Positions 12,834-55,640 of a stretch of DNA of 64,000 nt are shown here, piece by piece; positions within the stretch are counted from its first letter, which is position 1, and every line of letters starts with the position of its first letter. The notes under the pieces are model-generated. The model saw only the letters and a list, made by a program, of their open reading frames with translations, ran no database searches and was not told the DNA's origin. The stretch is from contig CAYWDM010000003.1 in assembly GCA_964457085.1 (NCBI GenBank), forward strand, positions 186-64,185, written 5' to 3'. The position numbers and the translations under genes were made by a program. Origin of the DNA: an uncultured Pseudomonadales bacterium (GTDB lineage: Bacteria > Patescibacteriota > Microgenomatia > UBA1400 > PJMF01).

Positions 12834-13202
12834 TTACCCAAGGACGTTGCCAGCTGCTTTCAGAATACCTACATTGCTTGGTGTAACAAATTTAATCTGG
12901 TCAGCAGTATATTCTCGAGTATATCCAACTCCACCAGGCCAAGTTAACACATTTGCACCTGGATCGGTATCATGCGAACCTGCTTGGGGAAATTCAGCGA
13001 TAATTATACCTTTATCAACTGAAACAACTCTAAAAATTTCCCATATAGTTTTGCCAGATTCACCAACCCAATGGCCACAGTCACCTGGTTGCCAATCATG
13101 GGCTTCTTCTTCTTTCCTGTTCACTTTTTCTTCTACCATAAACCCTTTCTTGTTATTTTGATTAGTATACATCAAGATAATATTGAAATGATGTGCTCCC
13201 AC
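12834..13202 (-). CDS. hypothetical protein
   Basis: 122-aa ORF with GTG start lying inside the duplicated tRNA-Arg 3' segment. An internal ATG (MVEEK, ~13139) is an alternative start. No recognisable domain. Confidence 0.3.
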   Translation of the reverse strand: MGAHHFNIILMYTNQNNKKGFMVEEKVNRKEEEAHDWQPGDCGHWVGESGKTIWEIFRVVSVDKGIIIAEFPQAGSHDTDPGANVLTWPGGVGYTREYTADQIKFVTPSNVGILKAAGNVLG

Positions 13203-13208
13203 CGGGAA

Positions 13209-13347
13209 GCTCCCTTTCAGGGATTAGCCACGGGCTTCGTAGGTTGTGTATCAGTGAAATACCCGCCTCCCTTGGCGGCAGGACCAAATGTCCATTTCCT
13301 ACGATGAGGTCAAATCATTAAAAACATCTTTAGGAAAAGATATTTTT
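13209..13347 (-). mobile_element. ~139-bp mini-element 3' of tRNA-Arg, flanked by a 22-bp direct repeat of the tRNA 3' end (13187-13208 and 13348-13369)
   Basis: Direct repeat aat[g/a]atgtgctcccaccgggaa, 21/22 identical. Insert starts with an A/T-run hairpin and holds a core related to GCCCGTGGC / cccttggcgg shared with other copies. Confidence 0.45.
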
Positions 13348-13354
13348 AATAATG

Positions 13355-13426
13355 TGCTCCCACCGGGAATCGGACCTGGATTTAAGGTTTAGGAAACCTC
13401 CGTTCTATCCGTTGAACTATGGGAGC
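13355..13426 (-). tRNA. tRNA-Arg (anticodon CCT)
   Basis: Hand-folded cloverleaf: acceptor GCTCCCA/TGGGAGC, D-arm GTTC..GAAC, anticodon loop TTCCTAA, T-arm CCAGG-TCCGATT-CCCGG; 72 nt. Confidence 0.8.
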
Positions 13427-13615
13427 ATGCGGATATCTGGATTATAGCGATTTTTTTTGAAAAAGGGGTAAAGTTGGGATGTGGCAGAAAGCTGGTCTTA
13501 GACTGCTGAAATTGTAGACAACATTAACGTTAAAATATTCAATTGGATTGAACTTGACTTGATCTAATAATTCAAATTCTTAACAATCTATTGTATTGGA
13601 GCAACAGCTTTGAGA

Positions 13616-14047
13616 TCAGGATTCCTCTGATCGTCTAACGAGTTCATCCATCAATGCATGCTCATTGTAGGATGCCCCTTTTTCCTCAATTTTTCCAAAA
13701 TATTTATATCCTGGAGTGGCTATCGTTGGGCGTCGTGAATAATCATGCGGGTAACTTCTCCAAGTATTTTCGTCAACCTCTTGACTTAGGCGAAAATGAC
13801 CATGGTAACTATTGCTGGAGCTTGTGAATTGTTTAATTAATTGTAGTAGTCCAACCCAATCCTGTGAGGCACCAAGTTGACTAAGTTGTTGTTTTATTCT
13901 GTCGTCAAAAACGGCTATGGGTTCTTTAGAGTTTAATTCGGTTGTGATGCCCATTGGTTGCAGGATATACTGCAACCTGTTCCAGATATATTCTGTTTTA
14001 AGAGTCTTTGCCCATTCTTTCATTTCCGCTTCATTTTGTTCAGACAT
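13616..14047 (-). CDS. hypothetical protein
   Basis: 143-aa ORF between two tRNA genes; no recognisable motif. Confidence 0.4.
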   Translation of the reverse strand: MSEQNEAEMKEWAKTLKTEYIWNRLQYILQPMGITTELNSKEPIAVFDDRIKQQLSQLGASQDWVGLLQLIKQFTSSSNSYHGHFRLSQEVDENTWRSYPHDYSRRPTIATPGYKYFGKIEEKGASYNEHALMDELVRRSEES

Positions 14048-14235
14048 ATACGAATTGATGCTTTTGTTGAGGCAATTCTTGCACGATCCGAGTGTTTCGT
14101 TTAGGTGTGTGGGAAATCTAGGAGTATTTGTTGAGTGAGTTTTACTTACTTAGCGGGCACGGGCGTCCGCAACTTGAATATATTTATAAAAGCACCTGCG
14201 GCACTTTTCTAAATATATGTCGGAGATGGCGGACT

Positions 14236-14349
14236 TACCTATTCATGCTCATGATTTTGACAAGCTGAATGATTTCGCTTGATTGGGCACAAGTCGTCCT
14301 TTTCTCATCACGTAGCTTCTAAAAAACCACTTTGTGATTTTTTAGAAGC
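14236..14349 (-). mobile_element. ~114-bp mini-element 3' of tRNA-Pro, flanked by a 22-bp perfect direct repeat tatatgtcggagatggcggact (14214-14235 and 14350-14371)
   Basis: Insert starts (tRNA-proximal end) with a 12-bp A/T-run hairpin gcttctaaaaaa/ttttttagaagc. It contains core tttcgcttgattgggcac, and ends with tcatgagcatga. It is homologous to the Trp-associated copy. Confidence 0.5.
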
Positions 14350-14355
14350 TATATG

Positions 14356-14429
14356 TCGGAGATGGCGGACTCGAACCGCCGACCTTACGATCCCGAACCG
14401 TACGCTCTAGCCATCTGAGCTAATCTCCG
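14356..14429 (-). tRNA. tRNA-Pro (anticodon CGG)
   Basis: Hand-folded: acceptor CGGAGAT/ATCTCCG, D-arm GCTC-AGATGGCTA-GAGC, anticodon loop TTCGGGA, T-arm GGCGG-TTCGAGT-CCGCC. Confidence 0.8.
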
Positions 14430-14487
14430 TTTATTTTTAGGGTACCGTGCTGCCAATTTGAACTGTGGACTTGGCAAGATAGCTCAA

Positions 14488-15852
14488 TTATTTTAACTCA
14501 ATTGTGTATAAATTGAGTGGAGAATCTGGACTGAATGCGGTGGTGATTACCAACCGACTGCCATCAGGCCATGGGTAGACAAAATTATTGGCGAATGGTC
14601 CAGAGTAAATAGTGGTGACGTTGGTGCCATCGTACGTCATGACCTGGATCTTATTGTCTCTGATGAAAAGCACATGCTTGGAGTCAGGGAACCACTGCAT
14701 TGTGTTGACATACATCGAACTGTGATATGAGTTGAAGTTGAGTGCAGTTTGAGCCGAAATAGTGGCTTGTAGAGCCTGGAATGCACTAGGACTGGACTCT
14801 AGCGTCATAGCTTGATTGGAGCTGAGGTCAGTAGCTAGAAGTTTTTTGAACACACCGTCGCTTGTGGTGTTTTCAGCGGCAACTTCAAAATTTTTATCTT
14901 CTTCACGGTCATACACATATATCTTCCCCGGGATGATTTGACGAGTTTCTGATTGAGTATTGCTGGCAGGAAGGGTTGGAGCTATGCCTTTGGGAATAGT
15001 TACTGATTGGGTGGCGGTATAAATGAGGCGTTTTTTGTCTGGTGAAAAATAAACATTTTTTGCAGATTGTGTAGCAACGGCAATTATTTCAGCTGGAAAC
15101 TTGTCCATAAACTGTCTCTCCCGTAGATACATTTCATGTTCCCACTCGGAAAGAATGGTTTTTTTCTTCCATCCAATATCTGGAGTGCGGTCAAGTTCAA
15201 TTTTTTTATCAATGCCAATCAACACATCACCTACAGCTGACATGATCAGTAACTCAGTGCTATCTGGTGACCAAGCTATATTGGCAGTGGCTAAATCATA
15301 TCGAGTGCTGTTGTCAGTGATTTGGCGAGGTCCTTTTTGCATACCAATTAAGTTGCTGATGTTGTTGAAATCAAGTATGTATAGTCCGGTTTTTAGTTGG
15401 CCAGAAGCGGTTGCAACGTAATACACGAGTTTTTGTCCATCTGGTGATGGTAAAACAGAGGAAACTCCAGTAAATGACAGTGGGGTGAGTGTGGGTGCTG
15501 AAGGAAAAAGTTGTGCGTTAGTTTGGGTGACTAGTTGCTCTTCAATGGAAAGGTTTTTTTCCCAAGAAGAATAGCCATCTTTGGAAATCTTGACGTGATA
15601 TTGCTTTGGTTCGAGATAGATAGTGCCATCAGTGGCAGTGACTAATTTGCCGTCAATATAGACTTCAGCACCAGTCGGAAATGAGTTGGCATTGAGCAGC
15701 CCCGTTCGTGGTGTAAAGCCACGGTCGGTATAGCGGAAGTTACCTTGTGCATACTGAATCGCCAAAAAAGTGCCGGCAATAATTATCAGTGCTGAAAATA
15801 CTGTATAGAGTAGTCGGGTATTAATGTGGGCCCATTTTTGTTGCTTCATCAT
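14488..15852 (-). CDS. membrane-anchored PEGA-domain protein with TolB-like beta-propeller repeats
   Basis: N-terminal TM, then PEGA signature (FPTGAEVYIDGKLV...YHVKISKDGY), then repeated WSPD/FSPD propeller-blade motifs. Confidence 0.6.
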   Translation of the reverse strand: MMKQQKWAHINTRLLYTVFSALIIIAGTFLAIQYAQGNFRYTDRGFTPRTGLLNANSFPTGAEVYIDGKLVTATDGTIYLEPKQYHVKISKDGYSSWEKNLSIEEQLVTQTNAQLFPSAPTLTPLSFTGVSSVLPSPDGQKLVYYVATASGQLKTGLYILDFNNISNLIGMQKGPRQITDNSTRYDLATANIAWSPDSTELLIMSAVGDVLIGIDKKIELDRTPDIGWKKKTILSEWEHEMYLRERQFMDKFPAEIIAVATQSAKNVYFSPDKKRLIYTATQSVTIPKGIAPTLPASNTQSETRQIIPGKIYVYDREEDKNFEVAAENTTSDGVFKKLLATDLSSNQAMTLESSPSAFQALQATISAQTALNFNSYHSSMYVNTMQWFPDSKHVLFIRDNKIQVMTYDGTNVTTIYSGPFANNFVYPWPDGSRLVITTAFSPDSPLNLYTIELK

Positions 15853-24768: not shown

Positions 24769-25047
24769 CTAGTCTTCGTCACTGGGATTTACTCCAAGTA
24801 GCCAAAGCACTGCTTCTTTCTTGTAGCGACGATCGCCACGAGAGTTGATTCTAATAGCGGGTAGTTTGCCACGTTTGCCCCAGCGCTTGATGGTTAGGGG
24901 AGAGACGCGCAATAAGTCTGCCACTTCACGTACAGTGAGCAAATCAGGTAAGTTAGCAATATCAAGCTTGGTGGCATCTGTCGCCAAGCCGGTTTTTTTG
25001 CTTTCAGTCATCATGTCAACAGCTTGGTTGGCAGGTTGGTCAGTCAT
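24769..25047 (-). CDS. excisionase/AlpA-family helix-turn-helix DNA-binding protein
   Basis: LLTVREVADLLRVSPLTIKRWGKRGKLPAIRI..RGDRRYKKEAV matches the excisionase-family (MerR-like) HTH domain; 92 aa. Confidence 0.6.
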   Translation of the reverse strand: MTDQPANQAVDMMTESKKTGLATDATKLDIANLPDLLTVREVADLLRVSPLTIKRWGKRGKLPAIRINSRGDRRYKKEAVLWLLGVNPSDED

Positions 25048-25347
25048 GTAGAGTCCCTTTCTCCTTTATTACGTTAATTCAAAAAATGTCGATCATTATT
25101 AGCTTTCAACCATTACAAATCAGGTCAAAAGCCAACAACTTCCGGGGTGAGGGGTGATCGATATGGATCAAATATTGGCTTATCTATATCTAAAGTAGCA
25201 GAGTGGAAAGAACTGGGTCAAGGGGGAGTTTGGATTAATTGAGTTTTTACATGAATTTGTTTCATTTTGCTCATAACTTGCACATCTAATATGTAAGTAG
25301 TATGCTACAAACCAGAGTGAGCCCATACTAGTGTTGAGGAGAGAAGT

Positions 25348-25602
25348 GTGATTAAAGTTGCATCCACGTCCCACTCTAAGGTCGACAGTCGATATTATTG
25401 CAGTGACATGATTTTTGCAAACGTATTGACTCGAATTAGTGAGTTGGGAAGCATGGTTGGTGTCAATGTACTTGACATCGATGGTGTTCTAGTCGAGCTG
25501 GAGGAAGATGCTGATGACAAGATGGTCATCTTTACTCTCAAGCACGAGCTTGGTCACAAACGTGACCAAGTGTGGCGATCAATCTGTAGATTGTATAGTT
25601 AG
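25348..25602 (+). CDS. possible small ORF in AT-rich accessory spacer
   Basis: 84-aa ORF followed by a hairpin+T-run terminator (~25648-25685). Weak coding evidence. Confidence 0.2.
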   Translation: MIKVASTSHSKVDSRYYCSDMIFANVLTRISELGSMVGVNVLDIDGVLVELEEDADDKMVIFTLKHELGHKRDQVWRSICRLYS

Positions 25603-25810
25603 GCAGTCGCTGCTTAATGACACAGTTTACAGAACTTATTTGAAGGGTCGTGGCGTTACAGCCATGACCCTTTTTTATGAAAAGTGCTTTTAAGACTTGC
25701 GTTTGCAATTTACATAACAAATACACACTGGTTCTTGCGTAAAACGTCCCATAGTATGATAATTATGCCATCATCAGCAATGGTGAAATCCGCTCTTTAG
25801 AGGTGAGTAC

Positions 25811-26086
25811 ATGAAGGTTCAGCTGTTGTATCTGAGTGCAGATACTGCACGACTACAGATTCATGGGTCAGAGAAAGAAATGATCCAACTCTTTGATGCA
25901 CATTTTTCTCGGACGGAGGTGCAAACACCCCAGTCAGTCGAATATGCTGTCAACGGAGACACATGCCGTATTTCGTGCGGACAGATAGTGGTATCTGGCC
26001 GAAGCAGTGTGGCTACAGTTCTTGAGTCAATTTACCGACTCACAGGCAGGCCTGAGAATGAGGCTGCTTTCTCGAGCGATGATTAG
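25811..26086 (+). CDS. small hypothetical protein, paralog family member 1
   Basis: 91 aa with strong RBS (agaggtgagtacATG) and own terminator at 26154-26184. Shares motifs (RLQIHGSEKEMIQLF; YRLTGRPENEAAF) with the next ORF. Confidence 0.45.
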   Translation: MKVQLLYLSADTARLQIHGSEKEMIQLFDAHFSRTEVQTPQSVEYAVNGDTCRISCGQIVVSGRSSVATVLESIYRLTGRPENEAAFSSDD

Positions 26087-26153
26087 CACGACCTACGTTG
26101 TTCCTTAACCAATCTGGTTTGTGGAACGTCATAGCGTTGTGATATTACGACTA

Positions 26154-26184
26154 CCCCGGCTTGCAAAGGTCGGGGAGTTTTTTT
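26154..26184 (+). terminator. rho-independent terminator
   Basis: ccccggc-ttgcaaaggt-cgggg followed by agttttttt. Confidence 0.7.
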
Positions 26185-26342
26185 AATTCAATTGCTTACT
26201 TCCAATCAACCTGTAATTTAAATCACAATTCACTAACGATTTTTTATCGGCAGTATAATAGGCTTGCGTGTTGATCAATCCGTATTTATACGGGTCTTTC
26301 CCAAGTAACAACTGGGTACTTATGTTTTAAGTTGGAGGTCGT

Positions 26343-26627
26343 ATGAGTGTGCAATTGCTAGAACCAAGAAGTAGTGAAGTTCGGCTTGGCATTCAAGGGT
26401 CAAGCGATGAGATTCTTACTCGATTGAAGGCAAGTGATTCGTTGTTCTTGGCGAGTCCACAGCCTGCACAAGGTACCTTGTTTTACTATGGTGCCTCAGG
26501 TCAAATCACTGTTGTGGCTGGTCAGATTACCGTAGTCGGTAATGAAAGTGATCGGCGAATGGCTGTGGAAGCAGTGTACGAAATGGTGGGTCGCCCCACC
26601 AATGAAGCCGTATTTGTGGTTTCATGA
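26343..26627 (+). CDS. small hypothetical protein, paralog family member 2
   Basis: 94 aa; RLGIQGSSDEILTRL and YEMVGRPTNEAVF parallel member 1. Own terminator 26692-26721. Confidence 0.45.
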   Translation: MSVQLLEPRSSEVRLGIQGSSDEILTRLKASDSLFLASPQPAQGTLFYYGASGQITVVAGQITVVGNESDRRMAVEAVYEMVGRPTNEAVFVVS

Positions 26628-26691
26628 AGAAAACTATTGTGGATACCGGTTATTTCTTAGAAATGATTCGGTGTTTGAAGTAGCAGGCGAA

Positions 26692-26721
26692 AGGCCTTGG
26701 ATTCGTCCAAGGCCTTTTTTT
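26692..26721 (+). terminator. rho-independent terminator
   Basis: aaggccttgg-attcgt-ccaaggcc + ttttttt. Confidence 0.7.
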
Positions 26722-26800
26722 ATTTCTAAAACAAATTTTTTTTGATAAATTGCTGCAAATTTGATCATTGAAGTATAATTTATATTGAATTCCAACTGTT

Positions 26801-27061
26801 TTGGAGGGCACTATGCCTAAGATTGAAAGTGTTGAGAAGTTGGATGGTGAGGTGAGATTTCACCTCACCGGAGTTACGTACGCTCAAATAGAAGAGTTGC
26901 TTCGTAAGAAATGCCAGGGATCAGAGCAAGTGCGCGTGTTTTACTGGCAGGAGCATCGAGTGAGCGTATTTCAACCTGGAGCTGAGGTGCTTGTTGATAT
27001 CAACAGCACACAAGCAGAATTCCAGGAAATACTGGAGGGTTGGCTCAAGGAATTGGGCTAA
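26801..27061 (+). CDS. small hypothetical protein, divergent paralog family member 3
   Basis: 86 aa; VRFHLTGVTYAQIEELL parallels RLQIHGSEKEMIQLF. Own terminator 27074-27108. Confidence 0.4.
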   Translation: MEGTMPKIESVEKLDGEVRFHLTGVTYAQIEELLRKKCQGSEQVRVFYWQEHRVSVFQPGAEVLVDINSTQAEFQEILEGWLKELG

Positions 27062-27108: not shown

Positions 27109-27385
27109 CTTTGCACTGAAAAAAATTTACAACAACCAAATATTGACATATTCATATGTTATAGGATAATACTACATATGTGTTGAAAGTAGCTGCCAAG
27201 TGGTAGCCAGTCAGTTTCCCTTCAATAATTGTGGGAATCGTGCCTGGCAGCTTGGGGTTGCGACTCCGGGGTTTCGTCTCCGGTTTCAACATATCTTCAT
27301 AACTGCATTCCGGAGGGCCCTTTGGAATGCAGTTTATTTTTTTGTATGCACATTTTTTATCGAACTACTCGATTTGACCTGAACC

Positions 27386-27417
27386 AAAAACCCCGCCTGG
27401 TTTCCCAGGACGGGGTT
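27386..27417 (-). terminator. rho-independent terminator after rplL
   Basis: Minus strand aaccccgtcctgggaaaccaggcggggttttt. Near-identical copy at 43046-43083. Confidence 0.75.
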
Positions 27418-33484: not shown

Positions 33485-35563
33485 ATGGTACTTGAGGTGG
33501 CTGTAATCATCCAATTGCCATTTGAGCTCAAAAAGTATTTGATACAGACAATGAGAAAAAATACTTTATTTGGCTTGATTGTTAGCTTTTTGTTAGTTAT
33601 CACTGCAATACTTGGCATGGCCAAGGAAGCACAAGCTGCTGATAAGTCATATTCAATAGATTCTGTTTTGATTGATTCTACGATTCTGCCCAGTGGTGCC
33701 ATGAAAGTGCAGGAGCGGCGCACCTACGACTTTACCGGCGATTATCGTTTTGCATATCAGACCATCAAGTTTCAACCTGATCAACAAACTAACCCTCAGC
33801 GTATTGAGCCATACATATTGAGTCAATTTCAGTTGTGCGAACGTGAGGTTTGTTATCAATTATTGCCAAGTAACCAAGTAAATTGGCAAACTCCAAGAGA
33901 GAACCCAGATCAAACTTTTGTGGTTGAGAAAAAGGCGGATGAATATTACATCCAATGGCATTTTCGTGCAGATTCAATCAAAAAAGAATTTACTCTATCG
34001 TATGTTGTAGACAATGCGGTAACCCAGCACGATGATACTGCGGAACTCTATTGGCAGTGGATTGGCAGCGGTTGGGCGGTTTCACAAAATTTGGTTAAGA
34101 TTACCACACATTTGCCAGTTGGTATTGCCAGTGATCAAATAAGTGCTTGGGCTCATGGTCCATTGACTGGAATAGTGTCGATTCCCAGCACTACTGAAGT
34201 TGAGTTCTCGGTACCTTCTGTTCCAACCGGCAAGTTTTTTGAAGGCAGGATTGTGTTGCCAAAATCCATAATTTATGGAGGGGCCAAAGGTAGTGGGAGC
34301 TTGGCAAGCATCGGAAATCAAGAAGCCACATTTATCGAGAAGACCAAGCAAAAAGTTGCAAAATACGATTGGATGGCACGCATGGCCATTTTTGGCTTTT
34401 TAGGCTTGCTTGGAGTGATGGTATTTGGGTTTGTTTTAATGTTACACAACTTTTGGTTGCATCATAAAGATCAGATGTTGCCATGGTTGCTGAGTAGTCA
34501 GGGACAATGGGAACCACCCAGTGATATAGATGCAGCACAGGTCGACCAATTACTAACAGCACAGAAAGCGATTACACCGAGAGCTTTTACAGCCACGATT
34601 TTGTCGCTAGTGCGGAAAAAAGTTTTAAAGTTTAGACGTAGTGATACCAAACAAGGGTGGTTATTTCCTGACTACGTTTATTATTTGGAGTTTATGGCTC
34701 ATGACGAAGTAATTGCAGCAAAACTTTCTGGAATTGAAAAGCATGTTAAGAACTTTCTGTTTAATATTCCCGAGACAATGATCTCATTTGGTGGCAAAGA
34801 AATCTCGGTGTTGCCAGTTAAAAGCATTACTGCTTGGGCACAAAGTCACAGAGAAACCAGTTATCAATTTTTTCAAGATTTAGCAGAAAAAACCCTTAAA
34901 GAAAACCTGAGTGAAGGCTTTTTTGATCAGGAGGCTCATAAGCGTTCAAGTCACTTTATTTTTTACGGTGTGGGTTTTATTGTTTTTGCAGTCGCAATTT
35001 TAATTGGATCCCTATCACTAGCTGATTCGTTGCAAACTGCGTCTGGATTTGCCGATGGGCTGCGTGTCATCGGACCAATTGCGATGTTCTTAGGTGTTGG
35101 CATGGGGTTAATTTCATTTTATCTGACTTCTCGAGGTGAAAAGCGTACTGAACAGGGTTTTGCAGAGGCCAAGAAGTGGGCAGCATTCAAAAAACACATG
35201 CAGGACTATCAAAAAACGAAACAATATCCGATCGACTCGATTATTTTGTGGGAGAAATATTTGGTATACGGCACAGTCTTGGGAGTTTCAGCAAAAGCAC
35301 TATCGCAGTTACCAGTGCAATTTAGTCCAGCAGATCAAGCGATACTCACTGGCTATTGGTTGGGAAGTACGGATAGTGTGGGAGGCGGTGGTATGAATAG
35401 TATTGGTGATTTATCTTCGAGTTTTCAATCTCTTTCGAATGCATTAACGAGCGTTTCCAGTGCTGCATCCAGTAGCTATGGAGCCTCTGGCTCAGGATCA
35501 TCTGGTGGATCATCCGGTGGTGGTGGCGGAGGAGGTGGCGGTGGTGGCGGTGGTGCGGGGTAA
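33485..35563 (+). CDS. DUF2207-like membrane protein with C-terminal poly-Gly tail
   Basis: Signal/TM, large extracytoplasmic domain, TM helices, then Ser/Gly tail ending GGGGGGGGGGGGGAG, as in DUF2207 proteins. Probable start MRKNTLF (~33551). Confidence 0.5.
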   Translation: MVLEVAVIIQLPFELKKYLIQTMRKNTLFGLIVSFLLVITAILGMAKEAQAADKSYSIDSVLIDSTILPSGAMKVQERRTYDFTGDYRFAYQTIKFQPDQQTNPQRIEPYILSQFQLCEREVCYQLLPSNQVNWQTPRENPDQTFVVEKKADEYYIQWHFRADSIKKEFTLSYVVDNAVTQHDDTAELYWQWIGSGWAVSQNLVKITTHLPVGIASDQISAWAHGPLTGIVSIPSTTEVEFSVPSVPTGKFFEGRIVLPKSIIYGGAKGSGSLASIGNQEATFIEKTKQKVAKYDWMARMAIFGFLGLLGVMVFGFVLMLHNFWLHHKDQMLPWLLSSQGQWEPPSDIDAAQVDQLLTAQKAITPRAFTATILSLVRKKVLKFRRSDTKQGWLFPDYVYYLEFMAHDEVIAAKLSGIEKHVKNFLFNIPETMISFGGKEISVLPVKSITAWAQSHRETSYQFFQDLAEKTLKENLSEGFFDQEAHKRSSHFIFYGVGFIVFAVAILIGSLSLADSLQTASGFADGLRVIGPIAMFLGVGMGLISFYLTSRGEKRTEQGFAEAKKWAAFKKHMQDYQKTKQYPIDSIILWEKYLVYGTVLGVSAKALSQLPVQFSPADQAILTGYWLGSTDSVGGGGMNSIGDLSSSFQSLSNALTSVSSAASSSYGASGSGSSGGSSGGGGGGGGGGGGGAG

Positions 35564-35596
35564 ACAAATTTTCTGATTTGATTGCGGCAACTCATC

Positions 35597-35701
35597 TGGC
35601 GGTACACCCCAAGAGTGTTTGCAGGGTGAATTTCATTCACTCAGCGGGCACGGGCTTTGTAACTCCTGCTTGCTCAATAACTGAGACCACCCTTGGCGGT
35701 A
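35597..35701 (+). repeat. solo copy of the GGGCACGGGC-core mini-element, not at a tRNA, bracketed by 8-bp direct repeat tggcggta
   Basis: ttcactcagcgggcacgggctttgta...cccttggcgg matches the Arg-associated element (cacgggctt[ct]gta...cccttggcgg) and the solo copy at 14133-14170. Confidence 0.4.
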
Positions 35702-35714
35702 TAATCAAGATCTA

Positions 35715-36995
35715 ATGTTTTTAACTTCATTAACTACTGTATTCAAAAATAGCTGGTTGCTCGGCAAAAATTTTAATAATCTGACGACCAAACCTTCGCT
35801 GAATCGTAATATTTGGCTCTTCTATCTATCCAGTTTTCTTTCCGGACTGATTTTTATTATTCCAGTGTGGGTGTGGTTCGAGCGGCGGATGTTGACTGTT
35901 GGCCAGATGGCTGGACTCGAGGCAGTTGGTACCGCTCTAACACTAGTATTGGAGTTACCAACAGGAGCGTTTGCTGATCTATTTGGTCGAAAGGCAACAG
36001 CTGCCATTGGGTTATTGCTGCAGGGAATTGGTAATGTTGTTTGTGGGTTATCGATTGAGCCAGTGCAGTTTACCGTTGGTTTCATGATCTGTAGTGTGGG
36101 CTCAGCTTTGCTGTCTGGAGCCAATGACGCGTTGTTATTTGACTCGCTCAAAGAAATGGGAAGAGAAGATGAGTTTGCTAAAATGAGCAGCAAAAACGCC
36201 ATGAGTTTCCAAGCTGGAATCGTGATTGCGACTCTGATTGGTGGATACCTTGCAGCTTATTCGCTGAGTTTGCCATATATGCTTTATGGCGTGGCTTTAT
36301 TATTGGCAGCAGTAGCGTTTTCATTCAAACAAGAGCCAAATATCGATAGTGAAGTATTCACCCTCAAAAACTATCTGCTGCAAACGAAAGCAGGAGTGAT
36401 GGAGTTGTTTCGTAGTGAGAAAGTATTTGAGTTATCCTTGTTTTACATTCTAGTCGGTGGCATCACTTGGTCATCTCAGTCATTTTTCAATCAAAATTTT
36501 GCGGTAGATCTTGGACTGACGCCAGTTGAGATTGGCTGGATTTTTAGTGTTGTTCGAATTGTTAACTCAATAGTAATCTGGAAATTAGTGCATTCAAGTT
36601 GGCTGAAGCCGCACATTGCATTTATTTTATTTGCTGTGTTGTTGGCGGTGGCATATCTACCTGGATATTGGGTGGGCAAATGGGTTGGGGCAGCAGTTAT
36701 TGCTCTTGCTACTTTTGGAAGCACAGCTCGGTTTGTGATTTTGGGTCAATATTGCAATCATGAATTTCGATCGAAGAATCGGGCTACGGCAATATCTGCT
36801 CTAAACATGGGTGTGAGCATATTTTATGTGGCAGCAATGGTGCTGGGTGGATGGTTGATGGAGCAGTTTTCAACTAAATTAGTTATCTCACTGCTGGGAG
36901 TTTTTACAGTAATGACTGTCTGGCCACTCACTTTCGTGTTAGTGAAAAAATATCACACGGCAAAAGCATGCGGGCAACAAACCTCAGATACTTGA
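35715..36995 (+). CDS. MFS transporter
   Basis: 12 predicted TM helices; MFS loop 2-3 motif (GAFADLFGRKAT). Confidence 0.75.
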   Translation: MFLTSLTTVFKNSWLLGKNFNNLTTKPSLNRNIWLFYLSSFLSGLIFIIPVWVWFERRMLTVGQMAGLEAVGTALTLVLELPTGAFADLFGRKATAAIGLLLQGIGNVVCGLSIEPVQFTVGFMICSVGSALLSGANDALLFDSLKEMGREDEFAKMSSKNAMSFQAGIVIATLIGGYLAAYSLSLPYMLYGVALLLAAVAFSFKQEPNIDSEVFTLKNYLLQTKAGVMELFRSEKVFELSLFYILVGGITWSSQSFFNQNFAVDLGLTPVEIGWIFSVVRIVNSIVIWKLVHSSWLKPHIAFILFAVLLAVAYLPGYWVGKWVGAAVIALATFGSTARFVILGQYCNHEFRSKNRATAISALNMGVSIFYVAAMVLGGWLMEQFSTKLVISLLGVFTVMTVWPLTFVLVKKYHTAKACGQQTSDT

Positions 36996-43038: not shown

Positions 43039-43045
43039 GGAGAAC

Positions 43046-43083
43046 CAAAAACCCCGCCTGGTTTCCCAGAGCGGGGTTTTTAT
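43046..43083 (-). terminator. rho-independent terminator after rplA
   Basis: aaaaaccccgcctggtttcccagagcggggttttt, near-identical to the rplL terminator. Confidence 0.75.
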
Positions 43084-45188: not shown

Positions 45189-45413
45189 TTAGCGAGAAAT
45201 TAAACTACTGATTAGTTTTTGAAAGATAAAATCAAGTCCACCAATATAAAGAGCTACAACTGCACTCACACCAATCACTAAAAGGGTGAGGTTGGTAGTT
45301 TGTTGCTTGGTTGGCCAACTCACTTTCTTGAGTTCAGCTACCACATCTTTCATATACTCTGTTAGTTGTCGCATGTGAGAGTGGATTGTATCAAATTCCT
45401 GGTGGTTGTACAC
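45189..45413 (-). CDS. secE: preprotein translocase subunit SecE
   Basis: 74 aa; single C-terminal TM with SecE-like VSWPTKQQTTNLTLLVIGVSAVVALYIG; upstream of nusG. Confidence 0.7.
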   Translation of the reverse strand: MYNHQEFDTIHSHMRQLTEYMKDVVAELKKVSWPTKQQTTNLTLLVIGVSAVVALYIGGLDFIFQKLISSLISR

Positions 45414-47499
45414 CGCGCTGCTTGAGACGCTCCATCATTGAGTTTGCAGATTCATTTTTTGGTGTCTGCATGTTGAGGTTTTGTTTCAAGTGCTCAAGAC
45501 GTCTTTGCTCTGATTCTAGATCACTCGTTTTTTGGGCAGTATTTGGATTTATGTAGCGTGCGTCTTTGCGGCGACTGTCACCAAAGAGCATTGGGAGCAC
45601 TAATAATGCTACAACTATTAAGAGTAGGCCACCAAGAATGAATGGCAATTTAGTGAACAAGCTGGTGATCCAGGCTGGTTTTTGTGTTGTCTTATTATCA
45701 GTTCCGCCAGTTGAATCAACTTTTTTCGTAGTACTGGTAGTTGCAGCTGGACTAACTGAAGGCTTGCTGTCGATAACACCAGAAGTGGTTGATCCAATTG
45801 CTAATTCTGGATCCTCACCAATTTCAGTAGCACTGCAAATGAAGCTGGCTAAGTTGGCTGGTAATCTACAGCGATTTGAATAGCAGCGTAGTCCCAATGC
45901 ACAATCGCTGTTGCCGGCACAGGTTTCATTACACTGCATTTCAGCAGCCTCTGTAGTGAGTTCTGAGCCACCTTTTTCGTTCGAATAAGACTCAATTACA
46001 CGGTACACAGATTTCTTCGCTGGTGCCTTGCAACTAGTATCTGGTTGGTTTTTGGGGTTGCGGCAACGATTCCAGTAACAACTGAGTCCAGCAGTGCACT
46101 CTCTTGAGTCTGCACAGTACTCATTACAACTGCGGTTTAGACCTTTGTCTGGAGCTAAAACACATGAGGTGCTATCAACATTGCCAGCACGGCGACATTG
46201 GTTGTTGGAACAAGTGAGGTTTGGAGCACATTCAGTATTAGAACTGCATGACTCATTACATTGTTTGTAGCTCACTCCACCCACACCTGCACATTTGGGG
46301 ATAAAGAAGCGCACCACACTACTATGTTTACCATTCCATAGCCTGAAATAGTAATTTACTTCAGGATAGAAAGAGTAGAGAGTTTTTTTGCCATCACTAT
46401 AGGTTCGGAAGTTGGTACTATCTGTTACTAAGTACGAGTCACCCAGAGTACTTGTACCACCAGAAACTTCTTTATTTGCGAAATCACGGAAGTCACTGTA
46501 GATACTGACATCGATTGCAGTAACATTTGGGTAACGGTTTTTGTTCCAGAGAACGTATGTTGAGTTTCCGATTGTGCGGTCATACCAACATGCTTCGTAG
46601 GTATACAAGCTGAAGTCTGGGTCATAACCAACTGTTTCACAGGCTTGAGTCAACTCTTGCATAGCTTCAGTTTGGTACCAAGTACAGTTGGCTGGAGTGG
46701 TCGCCACGGTGCGAGTTTTCCAACCATTGGTACATGCACCCCAATCTGAGTAGGTGTAAGCACATTGTTGGAGACAACTCTGCTCAAGTTGAGTGGCATC
46801 TGGGGCAGCGCAAGTTGACGGGTTTGCGGTATAAGTGCGGATTTGTTTACCGTTTTGGCAGCTTGACCAAGCCCCAAACGAATAACTGCAGACATCTTGG
46901 ATCACATTCAATACTACGTTTTCTACGGTGTTTAGTACGTCTTGATTGGCGGTTTGATACCGAGTAACAATTGTTTTACTTTGGTCGAAATCTAGGCGGT
47001 ATGCATTAGTGGAAGCAGGAATCAAGCTGAGGGCCATCAAAGACTCGTTCCCAGAGGTGCTGAATGGGTCACCGACGACATTTGGTAACAGCATGAATTG
47101 ATATTGGTATCCATTTGTAGTGGCCTTGCCATTCCAATCGGCTAAACGTAATTTCGGATTAGTGACTCGGTAGGAAAAACCCGATCCAAATTGTTGGTTC
47201 TCTCCAGTAACTGTCAAATCAAGGGTTAATTGGACGGCACTTACTTGAGTATTATTGGTGTTGATGTCAATCTGAATCGGAGATTCTGTGCCAAGTTTGA
47301 GCGTAGTAGTGGGACTAGTTATGTGCACCACACCATTGGTTACGCTGGCTTGACCTCGCAAATCGGTGTCTTCGCGTAATTGTTTTTGTAACAGCAAGGA
47401 ACTAACAGCTAAAAAGCCAAAAAGTGTTAATATCACCACCCATAAAACAGTGGAAATGGGCTTGGTAAGTAGTGGTTGAGTGCCGAGTGTGCGCTTCAT
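45391..47499 (-). CDS. large secreted/anchored Cys-rich repeat protein with N-terminal cohesin-like module; paralog of 48450-50483
   Basis: N-terminal TM, cohesin-like segment (LGTESPIQIDINTNNTQVSAVQLTLDL). Central region collinear with the paralog (YTYEACWYDRTIGNSTYVLWNKNRYPNV...KCAGVGGVSYKQCNESC...). Four ~25-aa 5/6-Cys modules ending C..NRCR. Start overlaps secE by 23 nt. Confidence 0.55.
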   Translation of the reverse strand: MKRTLGTQPLLTKPISTVLWVVILTLFGFLAVSSLLLQKQLREDTDLRGQASVTNGVVHITSPTTTLKLGTESPIQIDINTNNTQVSAVQLTLDLTVTGENQQFGSGFSYRVTNPKLRLADWNGKATTNGYQYQFMLLPNVVGDPFSTSGNESLMALSLIPASTNAYRLDFDQSKTIVTRYQTANQDVLNTVENVVLNVIQDVCSYSFGAWSSCQNGKQIRTYTANPSTCAAPDATQLEQSCLQQCAYTYSDWGACTNGWKTRTVATTPANCTWYQTEAMQELTQACETVGYDPDFSLYTYEACWYDRTIGNSTYVLWNKNRYPNVTAIDVSIYSDFRDFANKEVSGGTSTLGDSYLVTDSTNFRTYSDGKKTLYSFYPEVNYYFRLWNGKHSSVVRFFIPKCAGVGGVSYKQCNESCSSNTECAPNLTCSNNQCRRAGNVDSTSCVLAPDKGLNRSCNEYCADSRECTAGLSCYWNRCRNPKNQPDTSCKAPAKKSVYRVIESYSNEKGGSELTTEAAEMQCNETCAGNSDCALGLRCYSNRCRLPANLASFICSATEIGEDPELAIGSTTSGVIDSKPSVSPAATTSTTKKVDSTGGTDNKTTQKPAWITSLFTKLPFILGGLLLIVVALLVLPMLFGDSRRKDARYINPNTAQKTSDLESEQRRLEHLKQNLNMQTPKNESANSMMERLKQRGVQPPGI

Positions 47500-47505
47500 A
47501 TACAG

Positions 47506-48366
47506 TTATCTAGTCCATTCTTTAACCATGACTGAGTAATCAAAAATGTCGATCTTTTTATCGTGATTGATGTCATACATCAAATCGGCTGGTGAGCTAT
47601 CAAAGAAGTGCATGCTGAGCAGGTCAAAATCACTTTGGTTTACTAAACTATCTCCGTTTAAGTCTGAATCTGCACAAAAGACATAGTTTGGTTGTAGTTT
47701 AATTTCACAGGCTGGATCCTCAAACATACATGCAGATTTCCGGATACAACCAATTTTCTGTTTCTCGCAACGTTGGCCATTTACTGATACACCGCAGCTG
47801 TATCCGATTGGTGGTGCAATTAAGATGCAAGAACGTCCAGCATCGACTGGTAAACATTCTGTGCCACACCAATCACATTTCAGAGGTCCTTGAGTTGGAG
47901 TGGGGGTGGCTGTTGGCTGTGGTGCTTTACAATCTTGAGAGCAATTGCAGTAGTTTTCACCAAGACCACAAACGCCATCGCCACATTTGGTACAAACAAT
48001 TGCACCTTCGGCACGCATACATTGACCAGTAGTATCTGGCTTGTCTCCAGTTATTTGAGTTAACCCTGAGCAACATTGTGGTTTAGTTCCATCAATAATG
48101 CTTGCTTTACCACCTTCGTATATACAGGGCGGTGGATATGAGTCTACAGCTGCAGTTAGGCTATTTTCTGCGACTACATTTGTACTGGCAGCTCGTCGTA
48201 AATCTTGAGAGCGTGAGACCATTGCCAAGCTAACAACGACTCCAACAGAAAGTATTGTAAGAAATAGTAGCGAAACAACAATTGTTATTGGCAGTTTTTT
48301 AAGATCAGCAGCAGTTTTTTTTGAATCAACTGAGATCGTTTGACCGGTAATTTCAGGCATCACCAT
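47506..48366 (-). CDS. membrane-anchored Cys-rich protein with C-terminal dockerin-like repeats
   Basis: N-terminal TM; Cys-rich body (KCGDGVCGLGENYCNCSQDC...). C-terminal duplicated Ca-binding-loop segments DLNGDSLVNQSDFDLL / DINHDKKIDIFDYSVM. Confidence 0.6.
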   Translation of the reverse strand: MVMPEITGQTISVDSKKTAADLKKLPITIVVSLLFLTILSVGVVVSLAMVSRSQDLRRAASTNVVAENSLTAAVDSYPPPCIYEGGKASIIDGTKPQCCSGLTQITGDKPDTTGQCMRAEGAIVCTKCGDGVCGLGENYCNCSQDCKAPQPTATPTPTQGPLKCDWCGTECLPVDAGRSCILIAPPIGYSCGVSVNGQRCEKQKIGCIRKSACMFEDPACEIKLQPNYVFCADSDLNGDSLVNQSDFDLLSMHFFDSSPADLMYDINHDKKIDIFDYSVMVKEWTR

Positions 48367-48449
48367 CTAGCATAGAATCAAGTCAGGGTACAAGTCAATA
48401 GAACACAACAGCCCAAATGATAGATGGGCTGTTGTGTTCTTAAATGCGA

Positions 48450-50483
48450 TTATTTTTGCTCTGGAGTAGAACTCGAAATTGGTCTGCCATAACTCTGACC
48501 TCCAGTTGCAGGAGTTGTGGGAGTTGCGGGACCATTGTTTAGACCAGCAGCTGGTCGAGTTGCAGTTGGCTGTACTGGTTGTGCTGGTTGCATTGGTGTC
48601 GGATTTGCAATCAATGACTGACCAGACTTTGCCTGCAGGGCAGATAGAATCCGTGGTACCCCAAGCACTGCTGCCACAGCAATGATAATAATCCCAAGGA
48701 TTAATGGCACAGCTGCGAATGGTGAACTGGCTTTTTTGGCTGGAGCGGGGGTAGCCTCAGTTTTGTCAGGGAAATCATTAACCAATTTCTTCACAGTGGT
48801 TGGCTTAGCACTTGGTTTGGCACTAACTTTAGGTGAAGGTGACACGTTTAACACCACATTTGCTTTTGGTGTTGGTGAAACGGTACTGGTCACCACTATG
48901 GTTGGACTGACTTTTGCAATTGGCTTAACTGTTGGTCTGCGAGTTGGTCTGACTGTGTCCCCATTATCGTCAACATAGCCACCAGTACCAGTGTCATCAG
49001 TACTAGATGTAGGTGGTTGGCAACGAGTATTGGCTGGGTTTGTCAGCAGACGACATTGATCGTTGTAACAGCGGAGATTGGCTGGGCAGTCGCTATTGGT
49101 GCTACAACTCTTATTACAGTCAACTACAACACCTGGCTTCACTATGGTTCTGCAAGAGACATCCTCAAGACTTTGAGAGTTGCGGCAGCGGTTGTACCAG
49201 CAAGTAAGTCCATTTGAACACTCGCTACTGTCTGCACAATATTTGTTGCAACTGGTTGTGGTGGTAGTGACACTTGAGCAGCTCTGGTCGTCGGTTTTTT
49301 GAGGTGCACGGCAGCGGTTGTACCAACAGGTGAGACCGTCGGAGCATTCGCTGTTGTCACTACAGTATTCATTACAACTGCGTTTAATACCTTTGTCTGG
49401 AGGCAACACACAACTAGTGTTGTCTTGATTGTTGATACGGCGACACTTACTGTTGTAACAATATAAGTTGGTAGCACATTCATCGTTGTTGCTACATGCC
49501 TCATTACATTGTTTGTAGCTAACTCCGCCAACTCCAGAGCATTTAGTTACTTTGTAGGTGGTGATTGCACTGTGTCGATTATCGTAGAACAGTCGCAAAT
49601 AATAAGTAATTTCTGGATCAAAGGTAAATGCACCTTTACTGCTGTTGTACCAGCGGAAATTGGTGCCATCAGTCATGGCGAAGCCATTACTGAGTGGTTT
49701 TGGATTAGTCACATCCTTATTTGCATACTCACTAAAGTCGGCTTTAGTGCTAATGTCTACAGATTTGATGTTGGGATAACGGGTGTTATTCCAGACGATG
49801 TATGTAGATGAACCATTTGAGCTATAGTTCAAACAAGCTTCGTAACTATAGACAAAGAATTCTGCGTTAGTGGGGACAAGAGTGGGTGTTGGAATGATTG
49901 CCACATCAGCAATTTTTACATCCAAATCTGTATGTAAACTAACTGCATCAGTGGATTCTCCCTGAGCACCAACAGTAGTATCTTCTTGAGAAAAGGTGAC
50001 TCTAGTTGAGTCCGATTTTTGTAGTGCTTTGAATGTTGCTGTCGCTAAGACTCCTTGGCCGGTTAAATAGGGTGGGTTGGCATTTGTTGGGACAATTACA
50101 GAGTATGAGGCAATGCCAGCAGCTCCGTTGACAGAGTTAATTAGTTCTTGTGCTTGAGAGGCAAACGCACCCTTTTCAATCTTTATTAACTCTAGATAAC
50201 TTTTGTCATATCGCAAGCCAACGTCCACAGCCTTAACTAAATTGGCATTGGTGTTAATATCAACTTTTACGGTAAAAATTTGTCCTGGGCCAACTGTTGC
50301 GTTTGATGTGGTTAGTCCTAATGTGGTGGCTGGCGCAGCTTTGCTACCCAAATCTTGATTCCCACCAAGTAACGCTATGCCTGCAGCCAATCCAACCATG
50401 ACAATAACCAGCAAAAACCCGACGATTGGCACTAACAGTGGTAGATGGGTGTGGTGAAAGCTGTGTGATTTAAGTTTGGGCAT
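48450..50483 (-). CDS. large secreted/anchored protein with cohesin domain, Cys-rich repeat modules and Pro/Thr-rich C-terminal region
   Basis: Cohesin signature GPGQIFTVKVDINTNANLVKAVDVGLRYDKSYLELIKIEKGAF...GVLATATFKAL (cf. CipA cohesin PGDTV.IPV....I..CDF.L.YDPNVLEI.EIEPG). Four C-x3-C-x5-C...NRCR modules. TPTP-rich tail with C-terminal TM. Confidence 0.65.
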   Translation of the reverse strand: MPKLKSHSFHHTHLPLLVPIVGFLLVIVMVGLAAGIALLGGNQDLGSKAAPATTLGLTTSNATVGPGQIFTVKVDINTNANLVKAVDVGLRYDKSYLELIKIEKGAFASQAQELINSVNGAAGIASYSVIVPTNANPPYLTGQGVLATATFKALQKSDSTRVTFSQEDTTVGAQGESTDAVSLHTDLDVKIADVAIIPTPTLVPTNAEFFVYSYEACLNYSSNGSSTYIVWNNTRYPNIKSVDISTKADFSEYANKDVTNPKPLSNGFAMTDGTNFRWYNSSKGAFTFDPEITYYLRLFYDNRHSAITTYKVTKCSGVGGVSYKQCNEACSNNDECATNLYCYNSKCRRINNQDNTSCVLPPDKGIKRSCNEYCSDNSECSDGLTCWYNRCRAPQKTDDQSCSSVTTTTTSCNKYCADSSECSNGLTCWYNRCRNSQSLEDVSCRTIVKPGVVVDCNKSCSTNSDCPANLRCYNDQCRLLTNPANTRCQPPTSSTDDTGTGGYVDDNGDTVRPTRRPTVKPIAKVSPTIVVTSTVSPTPKANVVLNVSPSPKVSAKPSAKPTTVKKLVNDFPDKTEATPAPAKKASSPFAAVPLILGIIIIAVAAVLGVPRILSALQAKSGQSLIANPTPMQPAQPVQPTATRPAAGLNNGPATPTTPATGGQSYGRPISSSTPEQK

Positions 50484-50491
50484 ATATACTT

Positions 50492-51412
50492 TTATGTTCC
50501 TATAAGTTGAGTGATGATTGCGTAGTCAATTGCATTGATTTTGCCATCATGATTGAGATCCGCTTCTGGCAAAATTGAAACTGGACGTAAATATGCAAAC
50601 ACTAACAAGGCGACATCTTGGCTGTCGACAGCACCATCGTGATTAAGGTCGCCTGTTTTATACCCAATTGGGGTAGTGGGGGTAGGACTGGCAACTCCAG
50701 AGATGGTTGGGGTGACAGTTGGGGCATTGGGACATGCTGTCATATTTGTTGACCATGTGCCGTTTACAGCTGGACAGCAATACAGACGATTGCCGCAAGA
50801 CTCGGCACGACCTACAGCATTACAGGTACTGTCAGTCGAAGTACCGTCAGATTCTGGTGGGTGACAGTTTCGCAATACGCCATCTGTGCCTGGACATTCT
50901 TCTACACAGGGGATTGGTATTGTGGGTGTTGGTGTGCCAGCATTGGGAGTGGGTGTTGGTGTCGAAGTCGGTGCGGGTGTCGGAGTTGGTGTCTTGGTGG
51001 GAGTGGGACTTGCAACATTAGGAGTAGGAGTTGGCGTCTTGGATGGTGCAGGTGTTGGAGTGGCACAAGCAGTCATTGCGGTGGTCCATGCACCACCAGC
51101 GGAGGGACAACAGTAACTCTTGCCACCGCATGGTTCAACTCTTCCTTTAACGTTACAGGTACTATCTGCTGAGCTGCCATCTGGTTCTGGTGGAGTACAG
51201 TTTCGCAAAACATTATCTTTGCCAGGGCATTCTTCTTTACAGCCGCCAGCTGCGAGATTGTTAGTGTTAAATCCAGCTGCATCCCTGCGTGGATCTTGGT
51301 TTTGTTGCACGAGTACGACTGCGGCGGGAATAGCCACAGCCATGAATACTAATCCAAGCACAATACGGAGTTGGCTTGTATTTGGCTGTTGCTTAGGGTG
51401 TTTAGAACTCAT
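50492..51412 (-). CDS. secreted Cys-rich protein with internal tandem duplication, PT linkers and C-terminal dockerin
   Basis: Two ~48-aa copies (ECPGKDNVLRNCTPPEPDGSSADSTCNVKGRVEPCG / ECPGTDGVLRNCHPPESDGTSTDSTCNAVGRAESCG), TPTPTP linkers. C-terminal dockerin repeats GDLNHDGAVDSQDVALL / ADLNHDGKINAIDYAII. Confidence 0.6.
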   Translation of the reverse strand: MSSKHPKQQPNTSQLRIVLGLVFMAVAIPAAVVLVQQNQDPRRDAAGFNTNNLAAGGCKEECPGKDNVLRNCTPPEPDGSSADSTCNVKGRVEPCGGKSYCCPSAGGAWTTAMTACATPTPAPSKTPTPTPNVASPTPTKTPTPTPAPTSTPTPTPNAGTPTPTIPIPCVEECPGTDGVLRNCHPPESDGTSTDSTCNAVGRAESCGNRLYCCPAVNGTWSTNMTACPNAPTVTPTISGVASPTPTTPIGYKTGDLNHDGAVDSQDVALLVFAYLRPVSILPEADLNHDGKINAIDYAIITQLIGT

Positions 51413-55619: not shown

Positions 55620-55640
55620 CAAACAAACTGTGCAAACCAA

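Follow-up and report, generated by a model that had tools for sequence, protein, structure and literature searches.

What are the short non-coding segments that lie behind several tRNA genes of contig CAYWDM010000003.1 (assembly GCA_964457085.1), each of them closed by a second copy of the neighbouring tRNA 3' end? The stretch analysed in this work (hereafter, the window) covers 64 kb of this contig and harbors six tRNA genes, on which ARAGORN and Rfam are in agreement; the neighbouring proteins place the organism in the Patescibacteria (candidate phyla radiation, CPR), near Pacebacteria/Microgenomates. The initial annotation had interpreted the segments behind tRNA-Arg and tRNA-Pro as attL/attR-like traces of site-specific integration into a tRNA 3' end. 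We give a probability of about one half to a different interpretation, i.e., that they are modules resembling the RtT repeats located behind tyrT/tyrV in Escherichia coli: conserved structured RNAs ending in a mimic of the tRNA T-stem 3' strand, acceptor strand, and trailer. The modules would be functional analogues, not homologues, of RtT.

Duplicated tRNA 3' Ends

A distal copy of the 3' end was found behind three of the six tRNA genes, namely tRNA-Arg(CCT) (13354-13426, minus strand), tRNA-Pro(CGG) (14355-14429, minus strand), and tRNA-Trp(CCA) (61989-62060, plus strand), the last of which lies outside the interval given in the initial annotation. The copies of the Arg pair (proximal, 13348-13369; distal, 13187-13208) share 21 of 22 residues and are separated by 139 nt; those of the Pro pair (14350-14371 and 14214-14235) are identical over 22 nt, with 114 nt between them; those of the Trp pair (62044-62061 and 62187-62204) are identical over 18 nt and lie 125 nt apart. 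The repeat search therefore recovered both 22-bp duplications that had been annotated at the Arg and Pro loci, with the same spacing and degree of identity. The 3' ends of tRNA-Thr(GGT), tRNA-Tyr, and tRNA-Thr(TGT) have no second copy in the window.

Read in the tRNA sense, the distal copies start at position A58 of the T-loop (at position 59 in the Arg copy of the window) and span the T-stem 3' strand, the acceptor 3' strand, the discriminator, CA, and then 0-10 nt of trailer, so that the duplicated length varies from 18 to 27 nt across units. The identity with the tRNA starts at nt 58/59; at nt 54-57 the copies have GGUA, GGCA, or GGAG, not UUCG. Since an exact pair of 22-mers is expected only about 1e-4 times anywhere in 64 kb, and since all three pairs share their anchor position in the tRNA, chance is not a plausible cause of the duplications. 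Moreover, the sequences of the module loci were found to be identical in independent assemblies from three sequencing runs; thus, the duplications are not an assembly artefact.

The inserts between the copies are, as the initial annotation had stated, small and non-coding (about 80-140 nt across units). The repeat search retrieved no terminal inverted repeats at the inserts, and the Pfam scan of 20 open reading frames (ORFs) of the window, all module neighbours included, did not reveal any recombinase or integrase. The GTG start of ORF 12834-13202 falls within the distal Arg copy, in agreement with the annotation; however, this frame is not kept in the relative L013, where a stop follows after five codons, and the ORF has no homologues in the protein database.

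In all six tRNA genes of the window (ends at 13354, 14355, 55496, 55620, 57221, and 62060), the discriminator is followed by CA (N73-CA), and neither by CCA nor by unrelated bases; several relatives likewise have C or CA after the discriminator.

Filled and Empty Sites among Relatives

Syntenic loci of related organisms were retrieved through the flanking PEGA-domain and DUF6938 proteins. One relative, represented by loci L013/L022 (run SRR17578869; about 74% protein identity), harbors an Arg module of 141 nt and a Pro module of 80 nt, while its Trp site is empty. In five others the sites are clean and empty, that is, one tRNA end is followed directly by other sequence: Pro and Arg in L010/L011 (about 74% protein identity) and in L012 (65-68%), Trp and Thr in L021 (76%), Trp, Thr, Tyr, and Thr in L027-L030 (about 56%), and Arg in L031-L035 (about 57%). 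These clean boundaries of presence and absence show that each module came or went as a whole; the one at Trp is specific to the lineage of the window.

Further copies were searched for in a broader set of sequences. A covariance model built from the three Pro/Trp core copies found only those three in 153 kb of related DNA; an 18-mer of the core gave five chance matches in the GTDB genomes, none with the second motif, the species being absent from the scanned representatives; a two-part core pattern gave four chance matches in the JGI metagenomes, none near a tRNA; and three patterns gave 0-2 chance matches each in IMG/VR. The checks proposed in the initial annotation thus had different outcomes: empty tRNA sites do exist, whereas the only further copies found are the Arg and Pro units of L013, and no cognate integrase is encoded among the 20 ORFs.

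Four additional observations concern the surroundings of these sites. Each relative has a different gene content between tRNA-Pro and tRNA-Arg, from a single orphan ORF up to genes for glycosyltransferase and sugar isomerase; the two tRNA genes delimit a small hypervariable region (window, 13427-14213; L010, 11496-15291; L012, 11549-13029; L013, 2440-2977). The tRNA-Arg(CCT) genes of the window (13354-13426) and of L013 (2978-3050) have in common an A51.C63 mismatch in the T-stem, whereas the other relatives have T63, and the T-loop of the window gene is TCCGATT, with C at position 55; the common derived A51.C63 state suggests that the two lineages may be sisters, which would be consistent with the Arg module having been gained once. 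In a public Logan contig from the organism of the window (L003, 3358-3825), the sequence changes to unrelated high-G+C DNA inside tRNA-Arg, probably a chimera joined at a conserved tRNA, and other contigs of this organism also end at tRNA-Arg and just past tRNA-Trp. Lastly, the 1.5-kb stretch between tRNA-Tyr and tRNA-Thr(TGT) (55621-57148), with an orphan ORF of 256 residues (55905-56675) that has no Pfam match, looks like another insertion in a tRNA cluster, without a tRNA-end repeat, because the two tRNA genes are 8 nt apart in L027, a more distant Pacebacteria relative.

Organization of the Units

The Arg unit lies on the minus strand. Its proximal copy comprises the last 16 nt of tRNA-Arg and 6 nt of trailer; directly 3' of the tRNA there is an A/T-rich hairpin (13315-13352) resembling a bidirectional terminator, which is kept in L013 with about 72% identity. 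Then follow a conserved 5' block, UCCUGCCGCCAAGGGAGG (13263-13283), a conserved 3' block, UACGAAGCCCGUGGCUAAUCCCUGAAAGGGAGC (13209-13241), which has the GCCCGUGGC motif and includes a degenerate additional copy of the tRNA end, and the distal copy (nt 59-73, CA, and trailer). The last 20 nt of the module (13209-13228, GCUAAUCCCUGAAAGGGAGC) can also be drawn, by eye only, as a hairpin whose stem, GCU..CCC with GGGAGC, reproduces the tRNA-Arg acceptor stem.

The Pro locus, on the same strand, starts with an A/T-rich 18-bp hairpin directly 3' of the tRNA (14313-14351), detected by the repeat search and by folding. Module A (14236-14299), homologous to the Trp module and to the Pro module of L013, consists of the GGAC strand of helix P1 (14296-14299; see below), GUGCCCAAUCAAGCGAA (14274-14290), a variable tip, and UCAUGAGCAUGAAUAGGUA (14236-14254); the distal copy runs from A58 to the discriminator and CAUAUA. 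A second, partial unit (14122-14218, minus strand) has its own hairpin (14178-14218) and, at 14155-14170, GCGGAC, which is the Pro-type pairing strand, and GCCCGUGCCC; a third copy of the tRNA end is not recognisable in it.

Behind tRNA-Trp, on the plus strand, a bidirectional terminator hairpin (62062-62100) is followed by the module (62110-62186), with the P1 5' strand CGAGGAU (62110-62116), GCCCGUGCCC (62117-62126), and a core homologous to Pro module A, and then by the distal copy, from A58 to the discriminator and CA. This hairpin has a CGAGC/GCUCG stem and flanks in common with the native terminator of the empty site L021, and no such hairpin is found beyond the distal Trp copy. The arrangement is different in the Pro unit of L013, where the duplication extends over half of the terminator (its 5' part) and the hairpin stands in full beyond the distal copy; the module is placed between the tRNA and the terminator hairpin, and no hairpin precedes it. 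The hairpins that had been annotated at the head of the Arg and Pro inserts do exist; that they replace the tRNA terminator is not obvious, given the resemblance of the Trp hairpin to a native one.

The exact decamer GGGCACGGGC (GCCCGTGCCC in the tRNA sense) occurs at 14155-14164, 35646-35655, and 62117-62126. The conserved core that the initial annotation had attributed to both inserts is present in the Arg insert as the variant GCCCGTGGC, whereas the Pro insert proper holds only GTGCCC; the decamer of the Pro locus is downstream of the distal repeat, outside the insert. The copy at 35.6 kb (35613-35712, tentatively on the minus strand) has neither a tRNA nor a tRNA-end copy: an Arg-like part, CCGCCAAGGGUGG ... 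ACAAAGCCCGUGCCC, is followed by a 43-nt stretch (35613-35655) that is 79% identical to 14122-14164 of the partial Pro unit. Because this copy joins an Arg-type 5' part (CCGCCAAGGGUGG ... ACAAAGCCCGUG) to a 3' part like that of the Pro locus, the modules look mosaic around the decamer motif. Neither the motif at 35.6 kb nor the second Pro unit folds better than shuffled sequences on either strand; these tRNA-less copies may be remnants, a second tandem unit as in RtT, or something else.

Sequence Conservation

The Arg units of the window and L013 align colinearly over their whole length. The 3' block, UACGAAGC(C/G)CGUGGCUAAUCCCUGAAAGGGAG, is identical at 31 of 32 positions, the distal tRNA-end copy at 16 of 18, and the CUGCCGCCAAG block at 14 of 17; an internal variable stretch retains only 8 of 24. 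The single internal difference of the distal copy (GGGAGC in the window, GGGGGC in L013) matches the A/G difference between the two organisms' own tRNAs. In the Pro units, GUGCCCAAUCAAGCGAA is fully conserved (17/17) and UGAGCRUGAAUAGGYA nearly so (14/16), around a diverged tip. Moreover, the Trp unit carries the Pro-type core, so that one core family stands behind two tRNAs with unrelated repeats.

As a yardstick, the DNA of the NDK and PEGA genes is 76% and 72% identical, respectively, between the same two organisms. The blocks adjoining the distal copy are thus far better conserved (94-100%) than genes (72-76%), while the linkers have diverged; this argues that these blocks are under strong purifying selection and that the modules are not decaying scars.

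Predicted RNA Structure

Folded singly, the three units of the Pro/Trp type give the same stack of helices, P1-P4, in their minimum free energy (MFE) structures (z = -3.1 to -5.2), and the stack was also recovered by RNAalifold from their alignment. It consists of an outer P1, P2 (UGCC/GGYA), P3 (UCA/UGA), and P4 (GC/GC followed by tandem G.A pairs), closed by a variable tip. The 5' strand of P1 immediately precedes the (G/A)CCCG motif, and nt 59-65 of the distal copy provide its 3' strand; beyond this helix, the acceptor 3' strand, the discriminator, and CA remain unpaired as a 3' tail. P1 pairs GCGGAC with GUCCGC in L013 Pro and (A)CGAGGAU with AUCCUUG(U) (ACGAGGAU against AUCCUUGU) in the Trp unit, its length being 6-8 bp in these two; in the Pro unit of the window it pairs GGAC with GUCC, 4 bp only. 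The 5' strand of P1 changes with the identity of the tRNA, and its best partner is the end of its own tRNA. In shuffle tests with unrestricted position, the two long helices were equalled in 72 and 182 of 5000 shuffles.

As for the Arg type, CCGCC of the conserved 5' block is paired with GGUGG of the distal copy in the MFE structure of either orthologue, and the core is enclosed; this outer helix is a tentative prediction. The tRNA sense is the putative orientation of the modules: it is favoured by the G.U pairs of P1 and P2, but one C.A position would become a G.U pair on the other strand. Rfam returned no family other than tRNA at the module loci, at either gathering or relaxed thresholds, and promoter scans gave nothing above the shuffled background. 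Hammerhead, twister, and other small ribozymes were considered for the GAUGAG/CGAAA-like strings and discarded (no matches, wrong order of the motifs). Taken together, a core that behaves as a conserved structured RNA is found in combination with a duplication that is yet polymorphic among relatives; of these two properties, the first speaks for a functional RNA and the second was anticipated by the initial annotation for an integrated element.

Comparison with E. coli RtT and Other Systems

The tyrT operon of E. coli has 178-bp repeats that include the end of tRNA-Tyr; to our knowledge, RtT has been seen in enterobacteria alone, always at tRNA-Tyr, and has stayed unexplained for decades. The Rfam search of the E. 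coli tyrT locus gave four RtT copies (RF00391, 133-138 bits), a family that Rfam classifies as cis-regulatory. The tyrV gene ends with ...GGTTCGAATCCTTCCCCCACCACCA, then TCACTTTC, and the repeats end with ...GCTGAGTAATCCTTCCCCCACCACCA, then TCACTTTC; the comparison of these ends shows that the tRNA copy of the E. coli repeat begins at A58 (AATCCTTCCCCCACCACCA), as in the CPR modules. In the Rfam consensus, the partners of an internal GGGGAAGG.U are A59 and C61-C67 of the copy, whose final nine bases (ccaCCACCA) are single-stranded; the CCA of the first copy is the annotated end of the rttR RNA. The rtT RNA is described as arising by processing of the tyrT transcript and as possibly linked to the stringent response (bioRxiv 10.1101/2024.07.17.603846).

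Five units (Arg, Pro, and Trp of the window; Arg and Pro of L013) were compared with the E. coli locus. In both systems the unit immediately follows a tRNA gene and has the same orientation as that gene; it ends in a tRNA copy running from A58 through the 3' end into the trailer; the predicted outer helix joins an internal segment to nt 59-67 of the copy, leaving the acceptor strand as a single-stranded tail; and more than one tandem unit can occur. The differences concern the host (CPR versus Enterobacteria), the tRNAs (Arg, Pro, and Trp with two core types versus tRNA-Tyr only), the number of units (one or two versus four), the hairpin that usually separates tRNA and unit in the CPR bacterium, the end of the copy (CA and not CCA, because the CPR tRNA genes do not encode CCA), and the presence of recognisable tRNA-derived sequence inside the units in E. 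coli, not in the CPR modules. Since the plan is the same and no similarity in sequence or to the covariance model accompanies it, we regard the CPR modules as analogues and not as members of RF00391.

Other known systems share single traits with the modules. Small RNAs (sRNAs) of the 3' external transcribed spacer (3'ETS) type, e.g., 3'ETS-leuZ, derive from the trailer of a tRNA transcript and are released by tRNA processing; unlike the modules, these sRNAs are located between the tRNA and its terminator and have no copy of the tRNA end. Cas1-family integrases (casposons, CRISPR repeat duplication) produce target duplications of 14-37 bp, and their target can be a tRNA 3' end; the CPR modules, in contrast, have no terminal inverted repeats or Cas1, their duplication is variable (18-27 nt), and their insert is structured and conserved. 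In the literature on Patescibacteria, no described equivalent was found.

A Model for the Modules

On the basis of the RtT-like interpretation, we can depict the following scenario. After the tRNA hairpin and a short linker, the core would form a long irregular hairpin, followed by the adjacent tRNA copy from A58; the 5' segment of the core would pair with nt 59-65 of the copy, giving a pseudo-T-stem, and then the acceptor 3' strand and the native trailer would remain free. The module would be transcribed by read-through from the tRNA promoter, in L013 Pro with no intervening hairpin, and the mimic of the tRNA end would allow the enzymes of tRNA 3'-end maturation to cut and trim the module where the tRNA is cut. 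Processing would release a stable small RNA with a tRNA-like tail; that this RNA titrates a factor binding tRNA ends, or acts on the downstream small ORF, are guesses. The modules would be inherited vertically under purifying selection, occasionally lost, plausibly via recombination between the two copies, and from time to time copied behind a different tRNA gene (from Pro to Trp in the lineage of the window), with the tail and the pairing segment then matching the new tRNA.

Several points weigh against this model. In four of the five units a terminator-like hairpin stands between tRNA and module, so that co-transcription needs read-through, and P1 has no acceptor 5' strand beside it; hence, recognition of the RNase Z or RNase P type is not obviously possible. 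The 4-bp P1 of the Pro unit of the window is not above chance in the shuffle test, and the Arg outer helix is rich in G.U pairs, has many alternative partners, and reaches a z of only -1.2 to -2.0; because there are only three (Pro/Trp) and two (Arg) independent sequences, covariation statistics are weak. The RtT covariance model gave no match at the gathering threshold in the window, and none at E<=10 in 13000-14500, 61900-62300, and 35500-35800. Finally, we infer the transcription, orientation, and processing of the modules, as well as their function, and the model accounts neither for the acquisition of a new tRNA 3' end by a module nor for the motif copies that lack a tRNA, at 35.6 kb and at 14122-14170.

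Alternative Explanations

The main rival, which we consider rather unlikely, is a miniature non-autonomous integrative element, similar to miniature inverted-repeat transposable elements (MITEs) or cis-mobilizable elements (CIMEs), consisting of a gene-less module and one tRNA-end copy and mobilised by a recombinase acting in trans; the two copies would then be attL/attR or a long target duplication, and the hairpin with the nt 59-65 stem a recombinase recognition structure or "guide". As in prophages, islands, and CIMEs, repeats of tRNA 3' ends bracket extra DNA at several tRNAs, with clean presence and absence at three of them; the copies begin at the same position, in the T-loop, and end variably. 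Furthermore, related cores occur at different tRNAs (the same one at Pro and Trp, the latter lineage-specific), a second tandem unit is possible at Pro, three of six tRNAs are occupied within 64 kb, the terminator of L013 Pro is arranged as a target duplication would give, and moving the core from Pro to Trp, where it has another tail and pairing strand, requires a mechanism, which the RtT-like model does not name. On the other hand, att-flanked elements differ from these gene-less inserts, which have neither terminal inverted repeats nor an integrase or transposase among the 20 ORFs; the identity excludes nt 54-57, so that the T-loop (nt 54-60) cannot be the crossover segment; and one attP would not match both Pro and Trp, whose repeats are wholly different. 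A crossover in the repeat or a target duplication would predict the opposite of the native-like terminator seen beside the proximal Trp copy, the blocks by the distal copy are under strong purifying selection and form a helix with it, the two Arg units are colinear throughout, as in vertical descent, and no more copies are found in the related sequence, GTDB, JGI, or IMG/VR. The attL/attR-like interpretation is thus supported in part: the duplications, their start in the T-loop, their gain or loss as units, and the related core at different tRNAs stand, and a classical integration scar does not. Nor do larger elements fit well: tRNA fragments beside tRNA genes normally stem from integrating elements, of 9-23 kb or more (PMC9897764), which speaks for both the miniature element and for scars of prophages or genomic islands reduced to their ends, and the variable gene content between tRNA-Pro and tRNA-Arg fits the latter as well. 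Such scars should decay, yet the conserved blocks outdo the genes and the distal copy still matches its tRNA; moreover, all three loci would have been reduced to the same gene-less architecture, with a core common to different tRNAs and a conserved secondary structure that takes in the distal copy, which makes this origin highly improbable.

Three further explanations place the emphasis elsewhere. If the module were a cis-regulatory leader or promoter of a small downstream ORF, the tRNA-like sequence being incidental or an RNA switch, one would understand why a same-strand ORF starts 0-170 nt past the distal copy in four of the five units, why RtT is classed as cis-regulatory, and why the motif at 35.6 kb takes up the intergenic space immediately before a gene for a transporter, albeit on the opposite strand; however, the downstream ORFs are unrelated orphans, L013 Pro has no such ORF, promoters and ribosome-binding sites show no consistent geometry, and the tail would have no reason to equal the neighbouring tRNA, so that we regard this explanation as very unlikely. 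A reverse-transcription stop at m1A58 is known from retroviral plus-strand transfer, and a reverse transcriptase might similarly copy the precursor tRNA from the trailer to the modified A58 and switch to the module RNA, the cDNA recombining beside the tRNA. All copies do begin at nt 58/59, including that of E. coli RtT, carry precursor trailer and not CCA, and have a variable distal end of identity; but the window has no reverse transcriptase, the inclusion of the trailer and the pairing segment each need added assumptions, the start at A58 is explained equally well if nt 59-65 serve as a stem strand, and the proposal is purely inferential, which leaves it the most doubtful of those considered. 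Lastly, and with a small probability, a gene-less mobile element could "adopt" any tRNA gene beside which it lands, copying its 3' end from A58 on, via reverse transcription halted at the modified A58 or via structure-guided recombination; the reprogrammable 6-8 nt segment complementary to nt 59-65 would be a T-arm targeting guide, and RtT a fossil of such an element.

Several other candidates were rejected. A MITE or DDE transposon would require terminal inverted repeats and a fixed short duplication, not a variable one of 18-27 nt, and the inserts have neither the coding capacity nor the inverted repeats of a casposon, for which a Cas1 gene and a duplication of 14-15 bp would also be expected. 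By inspection, the core has no similarity to the 5' part of a tRNA, as a degenerate whole-tRNA pseudogene would; an IS200/IS605 element or TnpB-type guide RNA would need its own copy of each tRNA end; core sites matching an integron attC or a CTX-type folded attP are missing; the module is in the sense of the tRNA and not complementary to it, as a T-box would be; and the pairing of an antisense-strand primer-binding site would stop at C74 of the mature tRNA.

Other Features of the Window

A cluster of small ORFs (24769-27061) includes a gene for a 92-residue HTH_17/excisionase-like protein (24769-25047) and three mutually similar ORFs of about 90 residues (25811-26086, 26343-26627, and 26801-27061). 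Since the HTH_17 gene adjoins rplJ/rplL in the relatives too, it is probably a core gene and not part of a mobile element. A G+C-rich, terminator-like hairpin of 37 nt occurs twice (27381-27417 and 43042-43078), 15.7 kb apart, with 95% identity. Several large adjacent ORFs (about 290-700 residues) at 45391-51412 have internal DNA repeats in common, with 69-72% identity (families D1-D3), and look like a family of repetitive surface-type proteins.

Biological Significance

If the RtT-like interpretation is correct, the independent and non-homologous recurrence of this design in a CPR bacterium would turn RtT from a single oddity into a recurring design. Since the design recurs at three tRNAs, with a pairing segment that follows the identity of the tRNA, it suggests a general principle, according to which a mimic of the tRNA 3' end would be a processing or stability handle for small RNAs derived from tRNA transcripts; the filled and empty sites, together with the two core types, offer natural variation for testing it. 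Moreover, short tRNA fragments next to tRNA genes are routinely taken for integration scars, but need not have that origin.

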